From the IMG/VR virus record IMGVR_UViG_3300032007_000014: a stretch of DNA of 64,000 nucleotides; one strand, given 5' to 3'. Shown in pieces: positions 7,182-42,848 of the stretch. The stretch comes from a virus (Duplodnaviria; Caudoviricetes). A program made the translations under genes and the position numbers. The number at the start of each line of letters is the position of its first letter. Within the stretch, counting starts at the first letter, position 1. A model generated the notes under the pieces. That model made no database searches, had not been told where the DNA came from, and was given only the letters and a program-made list of their open reading frames with translations.

Positions 7182-7742
7182 TTAATTGTTTCCATTCCAC
7201 TGATTGGAAGCAAGTTCCATCAGTTTAAGGAAGTTCATTTCGTTGAAAATGTTCTTACGAAGTGCATAGGCATCAATGAAACGAATATCATCGATACCTT
7301 CGAACTCATCCGAAGACACCTCCTGGAACTTGGCTTTCATCTGATCGATCTTCTCCTGTGGGACACCATGGACATTACCATAGTTATTCCTCATGATAAT
7401 GATACGAACGATGCACTTGGTGCGACGAGCAATGCCAAAGTAATGCTTACGTTCCCACTTCGTGAGATTCGTATTCGTAACGATGACATTAACTCCGTTG
7501 GAGAGATCACACTCTGTGCTTTTCTGGCACTCTGCATGATACTCCGCGAGTTTCGAAGGATCGAACTTGTATTCCTTCGTTGTAGCATCGACGAAATACT
7601 CATCCGTTTCGCGAAGAACCGTGAGGTTCTCGTTACGACGATCTCTCCGTAGATCGAGGAACTCCTTGAGTTGATGTCCAAGTGTGGACTTCCCAGAGCC
7701 AGGCAATCCGATGATGAGACAGAGACAGGGTTTCTTTTTCAT
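7182..7742 (-). CDS. P-loop kinase (AAA_33 / polynucleotide-kinase-like)
   Basis: LIIGLPGSGKST Walker A, ETDEYF, VIVTNTN and RNNYGNVHGVP motifs; SD GGAGG before the ATG at 7742. Confidence 0.8.
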   Translation of the reverse strand: MKKKPCLCLIIGLPGSGKSTLGHQLKEFLDLRRDRRNENLTVLRETDEYFVDATTKEYKFDPSKLAEYHAECQKSTECDLSNGVNVIVTNTNLTKWERKHYFGIARRTKCIVRIIIMRNNYGNVHGVPQEKIDQMKAKFQEVSSDEFEGIDDIRFIDAYALRKNIFNEMNFLKLMELASNQWNGNN

Positions 7743-7782
7743 TTTATACCTCCATTGTTGGTTATTGTTTCTGTTCATCCGT

Positions 7783-7790
7783 GTAATATA
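7783..7790 (-). promoter_or_regulatory. phiKZ-type early promoter motif TATATTAC
   Basis: Exact match on the minus strand about 40 nt upstream of the 7742 start, with an upstream T-tract; the motif recurs before many minus-strand genes. Confidence 0.65.
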
Positions 7791-7860
7791 TGCTTGTTAT
7801 AAGTCGATTAACAAAAAAAATAACTACTACTCACTAGGTGTAGTGAGTAGTAGCTGTAGT

Positions 7861-8247
7861 TCATAGAAAACATGGACAGAATGGAAACACTGATTCTGTT
7901 TCAGCAAGATGAACATCGATACGGTGCCTCCGATCCATCGTGCGAACTCCGATCGTACGATATATCTCGTACGATATGAACCAATCTTCTTTGTTCTGTG
8001 GATCACGGACATTTACGACAAGTTTCATCTTATGACTGGGTTCCTTTGGTTCCCATTTGAATTTAACATCGAGTGGTATCAATGGACGATATTTGTTCCT
8101 TTCTTTGTAGTACTTGACAAAGTCAGAATGATATCTGTCGAGAATCTCTTTTGCTTTAGGATAACTTTCCACGGGACATACTTTCACCCAAGGATTATCC
8201 TTATTCCATTTGCAGTATTCTGTGATGACAATAACCCATCTTGACAT
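7861..8247 (-). CDS. Hypothetical protein
   Basis: 128-aa ORF, SD AAGGAG, hairpins on both sides. Confidence 0.65.
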   Translation of the reverse strand: MSRWVIVITEYCKWNKDNPWVKVCPVESYPKAKEILDRYHSDFVKYYKERNKYRPLIPLDVKFKWEPKEPSHKMKLVVNVRDPQNKEDWFISYEIYRTIGVRTMDRRHRIDVHLAETESVFPFCPCFL

Positions 8248-8332
8248 GTTAACTCCTTGTGTTGAGAATTTAAGTTAAGTTGTGAGAGAGATAGAGGAGG
8301 GATAGTTGTTCCCTCCTCTATCTCCTTGTTGT

Positions 8333-9097
8333 TCAGACATCAAGTCTTTCGCCTTGCTTTCCGTAATGGAACTTGTCGATCATCCCATCTTCAACGAAAT
8401 CTCTTACCATCTCTTCGACAGTAAGGATATCGATACCCTTGATGGTTGCTTTGTGCAGATCAAGTGCATTCTTGTATACCTTGCTGTAAGTGGGAGGTAA
8501 GAGATCCGTGTGTTCCACATACTTCTCTTGGATGTGCTGGAGAGCAGTGGATGCAACCACATGGATCAGGTGATCATTGAGATGTTCACCCGTGTGTTGA
8601 TGGATCGTGTGCGCGATGGCTTTCTCGAACAGCATGATCGTAGACAACCTGTGGGGAGAGCTACGATCTGCTGTTGCAAGATAATCCGAGTAAATGTTAC
8701 GCCAGGGTGTACCATACGCAACCTTACGAACATACTTCTTGGAGTCACGATGATCAATGATCGATGTGGTGATGTTCTCCACAGCTTCTGGTGACAGCAT
8801 CTTGTGGAGTTCACGTTCCACGATGTAGGAGGAGTAGATCTCATGATCTACTCTCCCCATGCTCATAAGAGCACTATCATGATACATACAAGCGACCACA
8901 AGTTGACGAACATCAAGATCTGGGTTCTCCAACTTGACAATATCCAGAGCAGTCTCGATCACATTGTGAATATGAGTATTCCAACCATGATCGAGATCGT
9001 TGAGTGGATAGTGCAATCTTGCAAGTGTTCCGATCTTCACAAGGACTTCGTCATCCTTGATCAGATCGTAGACAAGATCTTCCTTTTGGTTCAACAT
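8333..9097 (-). CDS. HD-domain phosphohydrolase
   Basis: H...H (DHGWNTH), MYHD, DHE..S, DHR and ADR residues in HD-superfamily order. Confidence 0.8.
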   Translation of the reverse strand: MLNQKEDLVYDLIKDDEVLVKIGTLARLHYPLNDLDHGWNTHIHNVIETALDIVKLENPDLDVRQLVVACMYHDSALMSMGRVDHEIYSSYIVERELHKMLSPEAVENITTSIIDHRDSKKYVRKVAYGTPWRNIYSDYLATADRSSPHRLSTIMLFEKAIAHTIHQHTGEHLNDHLIHVVASTALQHIQEKYVEHTDLLPPTYSKVYKNALDLHKATIKGIDILTVEEMVRDFVEDGMIDKFHYGKQGERLDV

Positions 9098-36840: not shown

Positions 36841-37500
36841 TTATTCTTCGACTTTCTTCAATGTGCGAATCTTACCCATACGATTGGGTACATCCGTCAA
36901 ATCAAGATTGTCACCATCCTCCGACAACTGACGTTCCAGTTCCTCAGCGATCCATTCTCTCGACGATCTCAACAGAGACAATTCATCAAAGTTGTAGATC
37001 GGATCACCAGATCTGAATGTCCAGCTGATCGGTGCTTCTCTGTCATAGTTGGGATCCAATGTGCTGAAACTTCCGTTCTCCAGAAGTCTTCCAACAACAT
37101 CTTCCTGTGGGAGATCTTGCGGTTCAACACCCCAACCACGGATCATGCCTTCATCATAGAGTTTCCTCATCTGAGGCATGGTCAAGATAGCTTGATACAT
37201 ACACGGAGGTACCTGTTCAAGATCTTCCAGACTTTCGATCGGAAGGATCTTGTTCGGTCTCAATGTCACATCCAATGTTCTTTCGACGGCATGGAATGCT
37301 TCATTGTCACGTGCTGTGATGGTTTGTGTGAATGCGGCATACCTGTCACCCCATACAGACTGTCCGAACAAGACACCAGATCCGTTCGTGTTCCATACAG
37401 AGTTCAGTTTGTCAAGAACAGCTTGCTGTCCATAATTGCCGCCAAGATATGCACCAAGCGGGATTGCTGTTGGCATATCCAAGACTCTCAATACTTGCAT
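36841..37500 (-). CDS. Conserved-position protein (phiKZ gp59-like)
   Basis: 219 aa, SD AGGAGG, P.MRKLY..G.I.GW and DLTD motifs; follows the RNAP beta' N-half gene. Confidence 0.55.
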   Translation of the reverse strand: MQVLRVLDMPTAIPLGAYLGGNYGQQAVLDKLNSVWNTNGSGVLFGQSVWGDRYAAFTQTITARDNEAFHAVERTLDVTLRPNKILPIESLEDLEQVPPCMYQAILTMPQMRKLYDEGMIRGWGVEPQDLPQEDVVGRLLENGSFSTLDPNYDREAPISWTFRSGDPIYNFDELSLLRSSREWIAEELERQLSEDGDNLDLTDVPNRMGKIRTLKKVEE

Positions 37501-37618
37501 TGTGTCGACCTCCTGTGATTGAGTTATTTAAGTCATAATGTAGTTCTTCGACATACAAAATTACAAGGATGGATGGGATTAATTTCCCATCCATCCTCGT
37601 GATATATGTCCAATCACT

Positions 37619-40600
37619 TCATGAGACTTTCATATTCTTCTCACAAAGATCTTTGTACTTCTTCACATCGATCGTGTCATCCTCGGTGAGATACCGATGC
37701 ATACCAATCGATTGTTCTGAAGTGATTTTCACTGCATTGTCCAATCCATTTCCCTGACCACCAAGGAGTGTGCAGATAGGATGCAGTTTCATGAGTTCTG
37801 GAACTAACGCCTGCTCTTTGATGAAAAGCAGGTAGAGTTGGTCACCCATTGGGTTGTTTGCGATCGCTACTCGCTGTACCGTTTCCAGTACTGGACTATA
37901 TCATCAACTCATCGCTGAGTTGGAGCACTTCAACATCGCTTGATGCTTACGTTCACAATGAACTAGTCTCTGAACCTTCTTTAAGCGGCTACGTGAGTCA
38001 TCTTAAAGCTTGGCTGCTGATTACCATACGCAATGTTCCAGATATTGCGGTTAGGCTCCCAGCAATTCACTTTCTTTTCGACATGGGTCACCCCATGAAG
38101 CGACAGTGTTGCAACTATCGAAATCAGCATTTGGCCTTTATACCTGTTCCTTATAAACAGGAGTAGACTATACTTTCACCAACAATGTGAGGGTACCTTC
38201 ATCACACCATAGGTATTCCGTCTCTAGTCGTTGAACCTTAACAACTTGTTGTCAATCATGACACCGTTTGGCTACCGGTTCCACACTTGCAGTGGACACT
38301 TGTTGTTCTTGGCTGCTGATCACGCCATTGTTAATAGATGTGAGAACCTACTCGATTTGAATAAGCTTTTATTTCATCTCACGATCCATCCCGAGACATT
38401 GTTTCAGTCTCACGACACCACTAGGGTTTCTCGGGCTTTAGGGTTTTCCAGCAATTTACGGAAATTCACACACATCCTTCCGGATATATGGGCCCAAGAC
38501 CTTTCGGTCTAAGCAGAAATGCTGTATGGTGTTAATCCAATCGTGTCATCATTCGGATCTGTCTTCACATGAACTGCGAAGAAGAGCTGAACAGCGCCGT
38601 GGCGCAACGTCGGATTCCTTCCACACTTTTGTTACGTGAATTACGACGAACAATTCACTCAATGTTTCCATTGTCTTGATCATGTTTCCATCTCATTGAG
38701 ATGTCAGGTACTTCCATCACCATATCGTCTTGTGATGTACTCCTCGTTAGAGGATGATCGATGTCGCTGTATCCAGTTACCTGGTCTACTCGCTAGCACG
38801 TTTCCCGTTTCCGACGAACCACTTAGCACCACTTTCGTGGCTTTTATTTCAGCTTATGGCATCTTGTTCATTCTTTCAGTCTTTCGACAACATTCACGCT
38901 TATCATTACTGATTACGTTGTAGTTGAACAAGCTTTGGGGATTTCATGCATTTCACCTGATGCTGCAGCACAATGTCACCATTGTACCGTCCTGGTCGAT
39001 TAAAGATATTCGACTTCTCCTAAGAATTCCTTTGGAATGTGTCTCGCATTCTTTGGATACTTGATGGAATATTCCCTCGCAATTCTGTAATGACATCCGT
39101 CAAGGATATCTTTGATATTGTGAGGTTCACATCCAACAATCTTTGCAATGACAGAATGTTTTATATTCTTTTCAAGCAATTGGCATGCTTTATGAACCAT
39201 TTCATCCGTCATAGCACTATGTTTCAATCCAGTCTTCAAAGCGTGATCCATATTCTCCCAGTTCCACATCCACTCGAGATTAGATGGATGGTTATTCATC
39301 TTATTCCCGTCTATGTGGTTGACTGTATCTTTGTTTTCTGGATTAGGAACAAATGCCATTGCAATTACTCTGTGTGTCTTCGTATACCACACTGTTTTAT
39401 CGTCTCTCGTGATGACAACTTCCGGATAACCATCCGGTGATATATCTTGGTGGAGATTCTGCATCCACCAAGTTGCAAATATGTTACCATCTTCAACTGC
39501 GTAATAATTACTACAGCCAAGAAACGCTAAGTGTTTGTACTGAAGACGCACTTCAGTTCTCCAAGGAGCATTGAAACACCAACCCATTAATTTCTTCTTA
39601 GCAATTTGAACAGGTTTCTTCTCTTCAAACGTGCTAAGATACAAATACGGACCGTCTTTGTACGTAACACCTGTAAGAAGATTCTGTACCACACCATTTG
39701 AGTAAACTCTTATGTGCGGCATGCCGAGATCATCTAGGGTTGTCATTCTCAGTGGTTTGTAGTTGTCATCCATAACTTCCTCCATGACAGGAGTTTACGT
39801 CATAGATAACAACCTGTCTCATTCGTTTAATCAGTTAAGAAGCAACGGAATTCCTTTCCAGGGACTTTCCGCCATTAAGATCTTGATGCACTCATGGATT
39901 GTTTCATCATACGTCACCAGTGCCTTGTTGTAAAGGTACAGTGCCTCATCATTACTCAGCTTTTTGCGTCGTTTCATGAGGTTGATCAGTTCCAGTTTGT
40001 GGTTGGCTACGACCATCCTCCAAGGAAGATGTACTTCGTCAGCCATGTGGTCACCCACAATAGGAACAATGACAGCTCGTGCGCTGAAATGCATACGAGC
40101 AGCCAAGATACACTTACGTATGAATCCTGTCTTTCCGATCAATTTTCCTTTGGTCACGGCATTGACATACTCCAGATAACTCTGATAGGTCATCCACACA
40201 TGTTGTTCAAGATAGTTCTTGTTACTGGTGGGATTGTGGCGATAGTTGTATATCGCATTACCCAACTCAATGCAAGTCTTGAGGATGTGTGTGGATGCAT
40301 CATCGTTGTACGTCATGGTTCCACTCTTGGTCAGAATGTGCAAACTCTGATTCAAGATCGGAATGTGACGCATGAAGATGCAATGTCGATATGTCTTCAC
40401 GAACTCTTCGATGTATTCGTTCTTCTTGGCTTTTGCCCCTCTGTTCAAGGAGAGACAGAACCTGATGATATCATCGAAGTTCTTGTAGAAGTAGTCTGGA
40501 CCTTGTCCTAGTACTCCTGCATAAGGTTCTGGGAGTTCGCTGTCAACATCCAACAGAAGGTCGATGACCTTCTTCTTCCTGGATACGCAACCCATCCATT

Positions 40601-41045
40601 TTCCGAGAACTCGATAAGCTTCCGGATGAAGGAGAGGTGGCATAAACTCAGGAATTTCCAACCAAGCAAGATATCGGATCTCATTGGCAAATGCTGTCCT
40701 TACCTCTGTCTTACATTTCGGACAGATGGTGTGAAGTGCAAAGTTTCCTTTGAGATTACCACAATCGCAACTCGCTATGAAGTTGAGATTGTTGTCACTC
40801 TCTTGGAATAAGATACGCTTCATCAACTCTGTGGAAGAGTCGTTGATTGTACCTGTTTCATCACATCCACATGGGACCACTTGTGCATTGGGATCATTTC
40901 GGAATACCTCATCGAAATCGATGAGTTTCAGCTTGGTGATGGATTTGGTTGTCTTGGGTTGACAGAAGACTTTTCTTTGTTCCGCGAATATGGGATTCCA
41001 ATAATCCGCTTCGCGTTTCGACTTATAGACAAAGTCGTACCACAC
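37619..41045 (-). CDS. Non-virion RNA polymerase beta' N-terminal/catalytic subunit (phiKZ gp55-like), spliced from 4 exons: 41045-39838, 38623-38512, 38134-38117, 37846-37619 (predicted 521 aa)
   Basis: Exon 1 has the CDC...CPKC zinc site and GKTGFIRK...RMHFSARAVI. Exon 2 reads GRNPTLRHGAVQ...PYSISA, exon 3 PNADFD and exon 4 GDQLY. Joining restores LLLGRNPTL and NADFDGD in frame. Confidence 0.92.
37847..38116 (-). mobile_element. Group I intron 3 (270 nt, no ORF), inserted in NADFD^GD
   Basis: Exon ends in U and intron ends in G; P AAUUGCUGGGA, Q AAUCAGCAG, R GUUCAGAGACUA, S GAUAUAGUCC; P1 CGAU/GUCG with U-G pair; CACU can pair with exon-4 GGUG (P10). Confidence 0.92.
38135..38511 (-). mobile_element. 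Group I intron 2 (377 nt, no ORF)
   Basis: Exon ends GCU and intron ends G; P AAUUGCUGGAAA, Q AUCAGCAG, R GUUCAACGACUA, S AAGUAUAGUCU; P1 AGACC-GAAA-GGUCU closed by GCU/GGC; UUGG pairs with exon-3 CCAA. Confidence 0.92.
38624..39837 (-). mobile_element. Group I intron 1 (about 1214 nt) carrying an HNH homing endonuclease 5' of the ribozyme core
   Basis: P3 UCAGGU/ACCUGA, P7 GAUCA/UGAUC (AUCGAUCAUCC...AAACAUGAUC), terminal G at 38624. The exact splice points are inferred from frame and the U|...G| rule. Confidence 0.85.
39000..39773 (-). CDS. Intron-encoded HNH homing endonuclease
   Basis: THRVIAMAFVPNPENKDTVNHIDGNKMNNHPSNLEW (HNH_3); NUMOD4-like N-terminal segments; C-terminal HTH-like tail; GGAGG precedes ATG 39773 (alternative start 39785). 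Confidence 0.92.
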   Translation of the reverse strand: MDDNYKPLRMTTLDDLGMPHIRVYSNGVVQNLLTGVTYKDGPYLYLSTFEEKKPVQIAKKKLMGWCFNAPWRTEVRLQYKHLAFLGCSNYYAVEDGNIFATWWMQNLHQDISPDGYPEVVITRDDKTVWYTKTHRVIAMAFVPNPENKDTVNHIDGNKMNNHPSNLEWMWNWENMDHALKTGLKHSAMTDEMVHKACQLLEKNIKHSVIAKIVGCEPHNIKDILDGCHYRIAREYSIKYPKNARHIPKEFLGEVEYL

Positions 41046-41087
41046 GTTGAGCCTCCTGTGAAAAATTAAAGTCTTGTTGAAGAGATC

Positions 41088-41124
41088 GGATCACGGAGGA
41101 GGTATTTCTCCTCCTCCGTGATCC
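41088..41124 (-). terminator. Hairpin downstream of the chimallin gene
   Basis: GGATCACGGAGGAGG-N7-CCTCCTCCGTGATCC. Confidence 0.65.
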
Positions 41125-41152
41125 TCGGTTCAGTTATGCACTGGCTCGTTCA

Positions 41153-42742
41153 TCAGTAGATGAACGGATTCGTGGCATCCCAGCCACCGACATTGCCCTG
41201 GCCGACGCCGAAGCCCAGACTGCTGAGAGCATTGTAGTTGTACGCCGAGGCGAGGCCCGTGATGTCGTACACCTGGTTGCCGTTCAGGTAGTCGTAGGTC
41301 AGATGCAGCGTCTTGCCGATCGCCTGAGCGATGGCGGAGAAGACGTTCGGATCGATGACCGCTTTGAACGTCATGTACAGGGATTCGGTTCCCTGCGGAT
41401 AATGACGTTTCACGTTGGCCAGCGTCACGCGCGGATCCATCTGGATCTGCAGGAAACTGGTCAGTTCCGAAGTGCGCGGAATGTCGACCGCGAGACTCAG
41501 GAAGTCGATCGACCGAGAGTCGACAGTCTCCTGGTTGGACTTGGTCACGACGCCGTCGAAGGAGCGGTAGCACTGGATGAACGGACGAACGTTCGGGCCA
41601 CCGATCGGGGTCTTCGTGAACGTGGACATGGCCGCCAGGAATCCGGCGCCGCTGTTGGCGATGAGGTTGTTGATCGCACCGATCTTGGCGCGGCCTTCCT
41701 GAATGTCGATCGCGAGAAGCGGTTTCATCGAGGTCAGGTACTGAGTGAAGAACTCATTACGCTGCGCGATGTCCTTGGCGAACCAGGGCTGGCCGTTCTC
41801 GTCGGTGATCAGGCGGCCGACGTTCGGAGAGTTCTTGGCGAAGCTGGAGAACTGTGCCATCCAGCCCTGCTTTTCGATGAATCCTTCGATCGCCAGACTG
41901 ATGCCGGTCGCGAGGATCGCGGGCGACTTGAAGTCGGACACGATGTCGGTGATCACGGTCATCGGGAGATACTTGACACCACCGAGAACCGGCTGCAGGC
42001 CGTTCATGCTGACATTGGGAGCCAGGATGAAGGTCGTGTATCCGGTGACGGCGAGAATCGGAGTCTTCTCGACTTCGGGACGGCCATAGCCGAGCTGATT
42101 CGGTTTCTGGCGGGTCGTGTAGAGAATCAGACCGATGTCATCGCGAGCGGGGATGTCGTGCGGATTCCGCGCGGAGATGAACTGACGGACGGCGTTGATG
42201 TCGGCGGACGCGACGAAGTCGCCACCGAAAGCATCGACCGTGACATTCGCCAGATTGGGATCGACCTGCGCATTGATTTCGTTGCGGATGTGGGTCGCCA
42301 TCTGGTTGGCGCGGGAATACATGCCGGGACGGACGACGATGCACTGATCGATCGCGATGCTGGCGTTGATCAGTTTCATGCGCTGATCGATGTCCTTGCG
42401 CATGGCGGCGACGGGGAGATCACCGGTGTTCTGATAGGAGGAACTGAAGATGAGCGCGATGCCGATCCGATTGTACGAGATCACGCAGGCCTCATAGTTC
42501 GTTCCATTGATGCGTTCGAAGTGCGCATCGAAGCCGGCTTTGACCAGCAGTTCCTTCACGGTGTCGAGATACTTCTGGCCTTCGGCATCCAGGTTGGACG
42601 GAGTGGCCAGACTGCCCAGCAGATCGAAGATGTTCTTCGCGCTGCTCGGCTGCGCCGCGGTCTCGGTGTTGGTCGGGTTGGGGTTGCTTCCTGCTTCGCT
42701 GGCGTTGCCACGATGCATGGAAATGGTGGATTCGTTTGCCAT
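41153..42742 (-). CDS. chmA: Chimallin (phage nuclear shell protein, phiKZ gp54-like)
   Basis: Immediately upstream of the gp55-like RNAP subunit; very strong codon bias (abundant protein); SD AAGGAGG; P..VITDI, W...F, IDIQEG and DSRSIDFL motifs plus low-complexity termini fit the family as recalled. Confidence 0.75.
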   Translation of the reverse strand: MANESTISMHRGNASEAGSNPNPTNTETAAQPSSAKNIFDLLGSLATPSNLDAEGQKYLDTVKELLVKAGFDAHFERINGTNYEACVISYNRIGIALIFSSSYQNTGDLPVAAMRKDIDQRMKLINASIAIDQCIVVRPGMYSRANQMATHIRNEINAQVDPNLANVTVDAFGGDFVASADINAVRQFISARNPHDIPARDDIGLILYTTRQKPNQLGYGRPEVEKTPILAVTGYTTFILAPNVSMNGLQPVLGGVKYLPMTVITDIVSDFKSPAILATGISLAIEGFIEKQGWMAQFSSFAKNSPNVGRLITDENGQPWFAKDIAQRNEFFTQYLTSMKPLLAIDIQEGRAKIGAINNLIANSGAGFLAAMSTFTKTPIGGPNVRPFIQCYRSFDGVVTKSNQETVDSRSIDFLSLAVDIPRTSELTSFLQIQMDPRVTLANVKRHYPQGTESLYMTFKAVIDPNVFSAIAQAIGKTLHLTYDYLNGNQVYDITGLASAYNYNALSSLGFGVGQGNVGGWDATNPFIY

Positions 42743-42848
42743 GATTTGCCTCCTTAAGGTTGGGTTGTTGGCATTCTTTGTGTACACGACGTCTTTTGAA
42801 GTTAGTTCCTAACGACTGGCTAGGTCGTCAGGTTTTGGCTTCAGTTCC

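Follow-up and report, generated by a model that had tools for sequence, protein, structure and literature searches.

How does a phage make a working RNA polymerase (RNAP) when the gene for its catalytic subunit stops short of the catalytic loop? The question is raised by a 64,000-nucleotide (nt) stretch of virus DNA, hereafter the window, which corresponds to bases 50220-114219 of the 238,219-bp IMG/VR virus record IMGVR_UViG_3300032007_000014 (about 90% complete). Its source is a 238-kb phiKZ-like jumbo phage of the cattle rumen, and the public runs that contain this stretch are bovine, sheep and other gut metagenomes. On the minus strand, an open reading frame (ORF) for the RNAP beta' subunit begins at 41045 and stops at 39831 with the residues GIPLLLN, and gene callers give a truncated product of 404 amino acids (aa) at the locus. 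Both features had been anticipated in a prediction made from the letters of the DNA (the original prediction), which placed the missing motifs on downstream fragments between three group I introns, with the active site on an 18-nt micro-exon. Our analysis supports this arrangement. As the best overall explanation of the data, the catalytic-subunit gene is very probably split by three group I introns and joined into the message for a 521-aa subunit. The pieces of the gene are as follows.

39838-41045, minus strand: exon 1, 1208 nt, ending in the codons for ...KGIPLL plus CT (seen as an ORF, by tblastn and in an RNA contig).
38624-39837, minus strand: intron 1, 1214 nt, group I with an IA-like build and an HNH ORF in its 5' part (excised exactly in RNA; missing in the DNA of a relative, L006).
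39000-39785, minus strand: HNH endonuclease ORF of 261 aa in intron 1 (Pfam HNH_3).
39775-39781, minus strand: AGGAAGU, candidate internal guide sequence of intron 1, overlapping codons 2-4 of the HNH ORF.
38624-38999, minus strand: catalytic core of intron 1, 376 nt (P2-P9.1 fold).
38512-38623, minus strand: exon 2, 112 nt, encoding (L)GRNPTLRHGAVQLFFAVHVKTDPNDDTIGLTPYSISA (alignment; mismatch-free RNA contig over 38622-38512).
38135-38511, minus strand: intron 2, 377 nt, group I, no ORF (match to Rfam RF00028).
38117-38134, minus strand: exon 3, the 18-nt micro-exon CCA AAT GCT GAT TTC GAT, encoding PNADFD (RNA contigs; conserved in L006).
37847-38116, minus strand: intron 3, 270 nt, group I, no ORF (match to RF00028).
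37619-37846, minus strand: exon 4, 228 nt including the stop codon, encoding GDQLYLLFIKEQ...KVS (alignment; RNA contigs of three runs).

Joining 41045-39838, 38623-38512, 38134-38117 and 37846-37619 produces a single frame of 1566 nt that encodes 521 aa and a stop codon, and the product contains ...KGIPLLLGRNPTLRHGAVQLFFAVHVKTDPNDDTIGLTPYSISAPNADFDGDQLYLLF... across the junctions. All three introns fall within 130 nt of coding sequence. Each of the 5' exons ends in T and each intron ends in G, with the intron-terminal (omega) G at positions 38624, 38135 and 37847 of the coding strand. The exon fragments, their coordinates and the U...G boundaries of the original prediction all hold. An alignment with phiKZ gp55-type subunits had been proposed as a check: the joined protein is free of gaps over the three junctions when compared with the intact subunits of RTH11, PhiPA3 (gp054) and RP12, and likewise with about 15 uninterrupted metagenomic relatives of 472-578 aa.

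What enzyme does the joined gene encode? In a tblastn search the exon-1 protein (404 aa) is 25-29% identical to the products of 205 phiKZ-like jumbo-phage records annotated as RNAP beta or beta', and PhiPA3 gp054, the counterpart of phiKZ gp55, is among the matches. The gene lies directly downstream of a gene in the nuclear-shell position, as it does in phiKZ, PhiPA3 and RP12. Thus, judged by homology and gene order, the split gene is the N-terminal beta' module of the non-virion RNAP (nvRNAP), a homologue of phiKZ gp55. Exon 1 alone has no Pfam match; an uninterrupted relative (P0009) matches PF00623 (RNA_pol_Rpb1_2) with 29 bits. The motifs GRNPTLRHGAVQ and PNADFDGDQ align in register with those of the homologues, and both the R-x-P-x-L-H/R signature and NADFDGD, the Mg-binding loop of the beta' module, are present. 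We found no second copy of exon 1 at E ≤ 10 in the 238,219-bp genome record, and a contiguous NADFDGD is encoded nowhere in it. The single xADFDGD in its six frames is a GADFDGD in a 551-aa ORF that matches the virion RNAP beta' subunits of other jumbo phages; this ORF is the virion RNAP paralogue, a different enzyme.

Evidence that the exons are joined comes from assembled contigs of three rumen metatranscriptome runs (X3, X15 and X23, from three studies), which were placed on positions 37500-41150 together with those of a DNA run (X5). One X3 contig (record 15; 1064 nt, no mismatch in 1046 aligned bases) covers 40519-39837, passes directly to 38622-38512, continues through 18 unplaced letters and ends with 37846-37595. 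It is a fully spliced message, with all four exons joined. The skip over intron 1 measures exactly 1214 nt. The first joint can be placed in two ways, one base apart, of which only one leaves a U in front of intron 1 and a G as its last base; the U/G rule therefore settles the junction as 39838 to 38623. In RNA contigs of all three runs, the exon-4 piece ends at 37846 and then runs into upstream exon sequence. The X15 and X23 contigs come from variant strains, and their printed letters translate as SISA-PNADFD, then GDQ, and as (GIP)LLLGRNP(TL). Around the junctions they differ from the window by synonymous changes, which argues that the protein sequence there is under selection. The joints between ISA, PNADFD and GDQ, whose absence would have counted against the original prediction, and that between LLL and GRNPTL are thus present in rumen RNA. 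The DNA run X5 retains the introns, and in each of the three RNA runs the exons are covered more deeply than introns 1 and 3. No joint that skips the 18-nt exon occurs among the RNA contigs, in which rare forms would be invisible.

To what class do the insertions belong? Intron 3 matches the Rfam group I model (Intron_gpI, RF00028; gathering score 50 bits) with 67.1 bits (E 3e-16, 37875-38126), above the gathering score. Intron 2 lies just under it with 45.9 bits (E 7e-10, 38144-38516), and the intron 2 allele of the related locus L016 lies above it with 51.0 bits. Both introns of the window align over model positions 1-253. The P1 helices fold in both, GCU^UAGACC (caret, splice site) with GGUCU-U-GGGC in intron 2 and CGAU^AGU with ACUGUCG in intron 3, and the P1 and P9 stems of intron 2 show compensatory changes between alleles.

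For intron 1, the P3 and P7 pairings of the original prediction are present, along with P4-P6, P7.1, P7.2, P8 and P9. The unconstrained minimum free energy (MFE) fold of the 376-nt core contains P2, P3, P4, P5 with a long extension, P6, P7.1, P7.2, P8, P9 and P9.1. The 6-bp P7 (GAUCAU/AUGAUC), which lies outside the MFE fold itself, makes a pseudoknot by crossing P3. P7.1 and P7.2 are two additional helices located between P7 and P3, a feature typical of group I subgroup IA. The P5 extension of intron 1 has 76-80% identity to the corresponding region of two other introns of the genome. One of these (L012 2324-2662; genome 7823-8161, minus strand) matches RF00028 with 52.6 bits and lies between two ORFs at 6.6-10.5 kb of the genome; the other (L013 2102-2540; genome 123101-123539, minus strand; 33.7 bits) lies in a family B DNA polymerase gene, where the ORF upstream of it carries PF03104. 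The candidate guide AGGAAGU pairs with GCUUCU^U over 7 bp, with a U.G pair at the splice site, and is the best in a scan of the 5' 880 nt. The HNH ORF of intron 1 matches Pfam PF13392 (HNH_3) over residues 136-179 with 31 bits (cut-off 24.8; E 2e-07). Related HNH ORFs, with 69-75% nucleotide identity to it, sit in other introns of the polymerase gene in relatives. Rfam matches for introns 2 and 3, the fold of intron 1 and the RNA joints together bear out the predicted set of three group I introns with NADFD on an 18-nt exon.

Two other kinds of insertion were considered. An intein, which would stay in frame and be removed at the protein level, does not fit: stop codons follow immediately after exon 1 (TGA, 39833-39831) and exon 2 (TAG, 38511-38509), and the insertions are missing from RNA. 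As for a group II intron, no group II RNA family matches in the window or the region, and the sole ORF is an HNH endonuclease and not a reverse transcriptase.

Several points weigh against splicing by three group I introns. What the RNA libraries offer is contigs and not raw reads, and DNA can be present in libraries of this kind; formally, the joined sequences could stem from a strain that has the same exons and no introns. Pairings of both P1 and P10 had been predicted to select the junctions of introns 2 and 3, and P1 stands, whereas inspection for P10 yields a 4-bp possibility for intron 2 and none for intron 3. Intron 1 has no RF00028 match at E ≤ 10, either in the 2.7-kb region or with a 411-nt core alone, so that the Rfam check put forward in the original prediction succeeded for introns 2 and 3 and failed for intron 1. 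The assignment of intron 1 to group I rests on its fold, the homology of one domain and its exact excision. Its modelled fold suggests that RF00028 may describe a build with P7.1 and P7.2 poorly, and these two extra helices would then be the reason that the search missed it.

Could the joined contigs be DNA or transcripts of co-occurring intron-less strains, and not the product of splicing of the window introns? Strains vary greatly in which introns they have, the libraries are available as assembled contigs that may carry DNA, and the fetched DNA loci do not include the strains that gave the X15 and X23 contigs. However, the X3 contig agrees with the window at every one of its aligned bases, whereas among 10 strain-level DNA loci those with other intron sets differ from the window by 2-5% in exon 1 and near the junctions. 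None of these 10 loci, and not the DNA run X5, lacks all introns. Nor does any of the 10 combine an intron-less allele with window-identical exons, the next-best exon-1 identity being 98.2%. In addition, intron 2 occurs as a circular contig in the RNA runs and not in the DNA run, so the libraries do report RNA. We consider an intron-less source very improbable.

Alternatively, intron 1 might not be a group I intron at all; it could be a degenerate or protein-dependent element that is removed by another route. The failed RF00028 search, which extends to the 411-nt core, and a guide sequence that is a candidate only are compatible with this idea. On the other side, the MFE fold gives a full set of group I helices with P7 crossing P3, the P5 extension is homologous to two RF00028-positive introns, a U precedes the intron and a G ends it, the excision is exact, and no group II or other intron family matched. 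A different nature of intron 1 thus seems highly unlikely. A decaying relic, in which insertions disrupted the polymerase gene and its fragments are no longer expressed as one protein, would account for the 404-aa truncated ORF that gene callers see and for the missing Pfam match of exon 1, but is scarcely credible given the fully joined message in RNA, exon pieces that are in frame and whose protein is conserved through synonymous changes in other strains, and a genome with no other copy of the subunit. On the points where the original prediction could have failed, junction contigs were found, covariance models matched, and no spare subunit copy turned up beside the virion RNAP paralogue.

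Intron 2 also appears in the RNA data in a form of its own. In all three RNA runs it is present as a 403-nt contig with a 30-nt end overlap, equivalent to a circle of 373 nt, and this contig is absent in the DNA run. Its depth is 6-17 times that of the exon contigs. The circle consists of 346 nt of the window's intron 2 (38149-38494, minus strand) and 27 letters that are absent from the genome. Read as a junction, the 27 letters comprise 14 letters that end in G (...GCAAG) and 13 letters that start with UA (UACUUAUG...); together with the exon end GCU, these 13 letters make a perfect P1 of 7 bp. DNA alleles of intron 2 vary mainly at the intron ends. These observations suggest a full-length circle of another intron 2 allele with different ends. 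The 27-letter junction was found neither in the genome, nor in any of the fetched loci, IMG/VR or the JGI metagenomes. When its two halves were searched separately, neither occurred in IMG/VR, and the two JGI contigs matched by an 18-mer are unrelated, the matches being due to chance.

We propose the following pathway for expression of the gene by splicing. Each intron would fold as a ribozyme whose guide pairs with the end of the upstream exon, leaving a U.G pair at the splice site. Two transesterifications would then remove each intron, ending at its terminal G. Given guide pairing with the upstream exon end and excision at the terminal G, the 18-nt exon would have to play two roles, being the 3' exon for intron 2 and supplying the P1 substrate for intron 3. 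Once ligated, the message would be translated into the 521-aa subunit with an intact RNPTLRHGAVQ...PNADFDGDQ active-site region. The HNH enzyme of intron 1 is probably a homing endonuclease: by analogy with PhiPA3 gp210, it would cut intron-less alleles of co-infecting relatives and so spread the intron. We infer that the introns are autocatalytic and splice without protein helpers, that the HNH protein has endonuclease activity and a target of this kind, and that middle and late transcription depends on splicing.

The introns themselves are present in some strains and missing from others. DNA of L006 (88% aa identity) is without intron 1 and is collinear with the predicted junction over 15 nt (8 + 7 nt); at ISA^P, between ISA and P, it has another, ORF-bearing intron, after which come the 18-nt exon and intron 3 as in the window. 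L015 and L023 are without intron 2 in their DNA, and L015 is collinear with the predicted junction to the base. Intron 3 exists in two forms, the ORF-less 270 nt of the window and 1035 nt in L015, where it carries a 265-aa HNH_3 ORF; L023 has a 265-aa HNH ORF in this intron as well. The ORF segment of L015 (4122-4909) replaces 23 nt of a peripheral loop (37941-37963 of the window). In L010, which is 47% identical, the intron at the intron 3 site scores 79.2 bits with RF00028. Contigs that share exactly the same 76-aa exon-4 ORF, with DNA 90-100% identical, have six different intron sets.

Among 63 metagenomic relatives (40-88% identity), most are recorded with truncated ORFs of about 375-470 aa that break at varied points of the same short region. 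Exon mapping in the fetched contigs reveals that 46 codons contain eight sites of insertion: LLL^G, GRNP^T, LRHG^A, ISA^P, PNA^DFD, APN^A, NADFD^GD and NADFDG^D. The APN^A site is also that of phiKZ. The insertion at LRHG^A scores 31-37 bits with RF00028 (L021 974-1348; L017 2350-3871; L009 about 7282-8431), and no boundaries that keep the protein give it both a preceding U and a terminal G. The same conflict holds for the phiKZ gp55 intron (L005 13180-14560), for which no boundaries with both were found. Most of the relatives' introns at other sites (L006-L009 and L011) go undetected by RF00028 at E ≤ 0.001.

In five of the loci the micro-exon is itself divided. L016, L019, L020, L022 and L017 carry a fourth intron between GCT and GAC, equivalent to the step from 38126 to 38125 in the window, which leaves PNA and DFD on two 9-nt exons. 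Its coordinates, where mapped, are as follows.

L016 3715-4724: fourth intron.
L022 3717-4724: fourth intron.
L017 4342-4725: fourth intron.

In L016, L019, L020 and L022 this intron is 1008-1010 nt long and contains a 185-aa HNH_3 ORF; in L017 it is 384 nt and ORF-less. It has no Rfam match. It is preceded by U, ends in G and forms a good P1 with GCU, and its P7 looks like GAUCA/UGAUC, as in intron 1. The X15 and X23 RNA contigs contain the CCGAATGCT+GACTTCGAT version of the loop in joined form, and in six of six DNA contigs with those letters the loop is split by the fourth intron. It is therefore likely that the 9-nt exons PNA and DFD are spliced together.

What do these variants imply? We tentatively picture the 46 codons around the catalytic loop as a population-level battlefield of homing introns, with at least eight sites, six intron sets in strains more than 95% identical, and the 9-nt exons PNA and DFD joined in vivo; for this picture as a whole we would claim slightly less than even confidence. 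If it is true, no shorter exons than these of 9 nt have been documented between group I introns of viruses or bacteria. A gene can be expressed in nature with an essential catalytic loop on an exon of 18 nt (and probably, in sister strains, on two of 9 nt) that lies between self-splicing ribozymes, and this gives a practical lower bound on the exons that group I introns can recognize. Tolerance of such crowding may stem from the separation of splicing and ribosomes in a nucleus-forming phage. The locus also offers, ready-made by nature, a large set of alleles distinguished solely by their introns, suited to studies of homing, co-conversion and competition between co-infecting jumbo phages. Finally, a loop split by introns explains the seemingly truncated, loop-less polymerases of rumen and gut jumbo phages.

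The surroundings of the gene add context. One neighbouring feature lies immediately upstream.

41153-42787, minus strand: neighbour of 544 aa, putative nuclear-shell protein (chimallin), by position and similarity; context only.

The 544-aa neighbour is 30% identical (E 4e-58) to a protein of L009 that a precomputed index lists as PF25677 (Chimallin_Phikzvirus). Our own Pfam scans assigned no family to either the neighbour or the L009 protein, and a BLASTP comparison of the neighbour with the protein upstream of the RTH11 polymerase gene, annotated as hypothetical, was not significant. Just past the stop codon of the polymerase gene is a near-perfect long hairpin (37530-37629, both strands). 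It gives chance-level matches to plant microRNA precursor models, at 29-30 bits and far under the thresholds; its simplest reading would be as a putative transcription terminator, used from the convergent side too. No close relative of the window was found among GenBank phages by megablast or in a related-locus search of IMG/VR.

How does this gene compare with known systems? The original prediction treated group I introns in the RNAP genes of phiKZ-like phages as established, and the literature agrees: introns in phiKZ RNAP genes, gp55 included, have been described (PMC11512511, PMC10914365). In our reading of the phiKZ record, gp55 ends with ...KAPN+GQLNN and a stop, and ADFDGDQLNL resumes 1.4 kb downstream. 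The phiKZ genes gp55, gp56 (HNH) and gp56.1 thus resemble the window: the gene is the same, 25-29% identical, follows the shell gene, and has an HNH intron in the catalytic loop. In contrast, phiKZ has one intron (N^ADFDGD) and the window has three (LLL^G, ISA^P and NADFD^GD), none of them at the phiKZ site, together with the 18-nt exon. In phiKZ, Oxford Nanopore (ONT) transcriptomics revealed no sign of splicing in the growth conditions that were tested (PMC10914365), whereas joined RNA is seen for the window phage. A second jumbo phage, PhiPA3, encodes the HNH protein gp210 in a putative group I intron of a virion RNAP subunit gene, where it mediates phage competition (Birkholz et al. 2024, PMC11620839). 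Here too, an intronic HNH gene lies by the catalytic aspartates of a jumbo-phage RNAP gene, which makes gp210 a model for the HNH protein of intron 1. The PhiPA3 case differs in that it concerns the virion RNAP, another subunit and a single intron, and in that competition was demonstrated there and is inferred for the window phage.

Several group I introns in one phage gene, with a very short exon between two of them, have a precedent in Staphylococcus phage Twort, whose orf142 has three such introns, a 23-nt exon and exon skipping (Landthaler and Shub 1999, in the account given by PMC10136302). Compared with Twort, the window has a short exon of 18 nt (sister strains, 9 nt) that carries catalytic residues, skipping of this exon is not seen in the RNA contigs, and introns 2 and 3 are not near-identical copies. 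A 34-nt exon lies between two introns of the Coxiella 23S rRNA (PMC10136302), and very short exons between self-splicing introns are known from mitochondria (PMC12308204). Gut Jug phages have on average 18.5 group I introns in each genome, and metatranscriptome reads were used to check their splicing (PMC12880540). Jug and crAss-like phages share with the window phage a gut habitat and an abundance of compact group I introns and HNH genes within essential genes. Their lineages are different, and terL, nrdD and DNA polymerase are the genes reported as split in them. PMC12880540 describes neither an intron cluster in an RNAP catalytic loop nor exons as short. The original prediction had called the locus an extreme case. 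This is correct in degree and not in kind: phiKZ gp55 has an intron in the same motif, Twort orf142 has a comparable arrangement, and the sister strains are more extreme than the window. The locus is thus a genuine and striking instance of a known mode of gene organization, and not a new mechanism.

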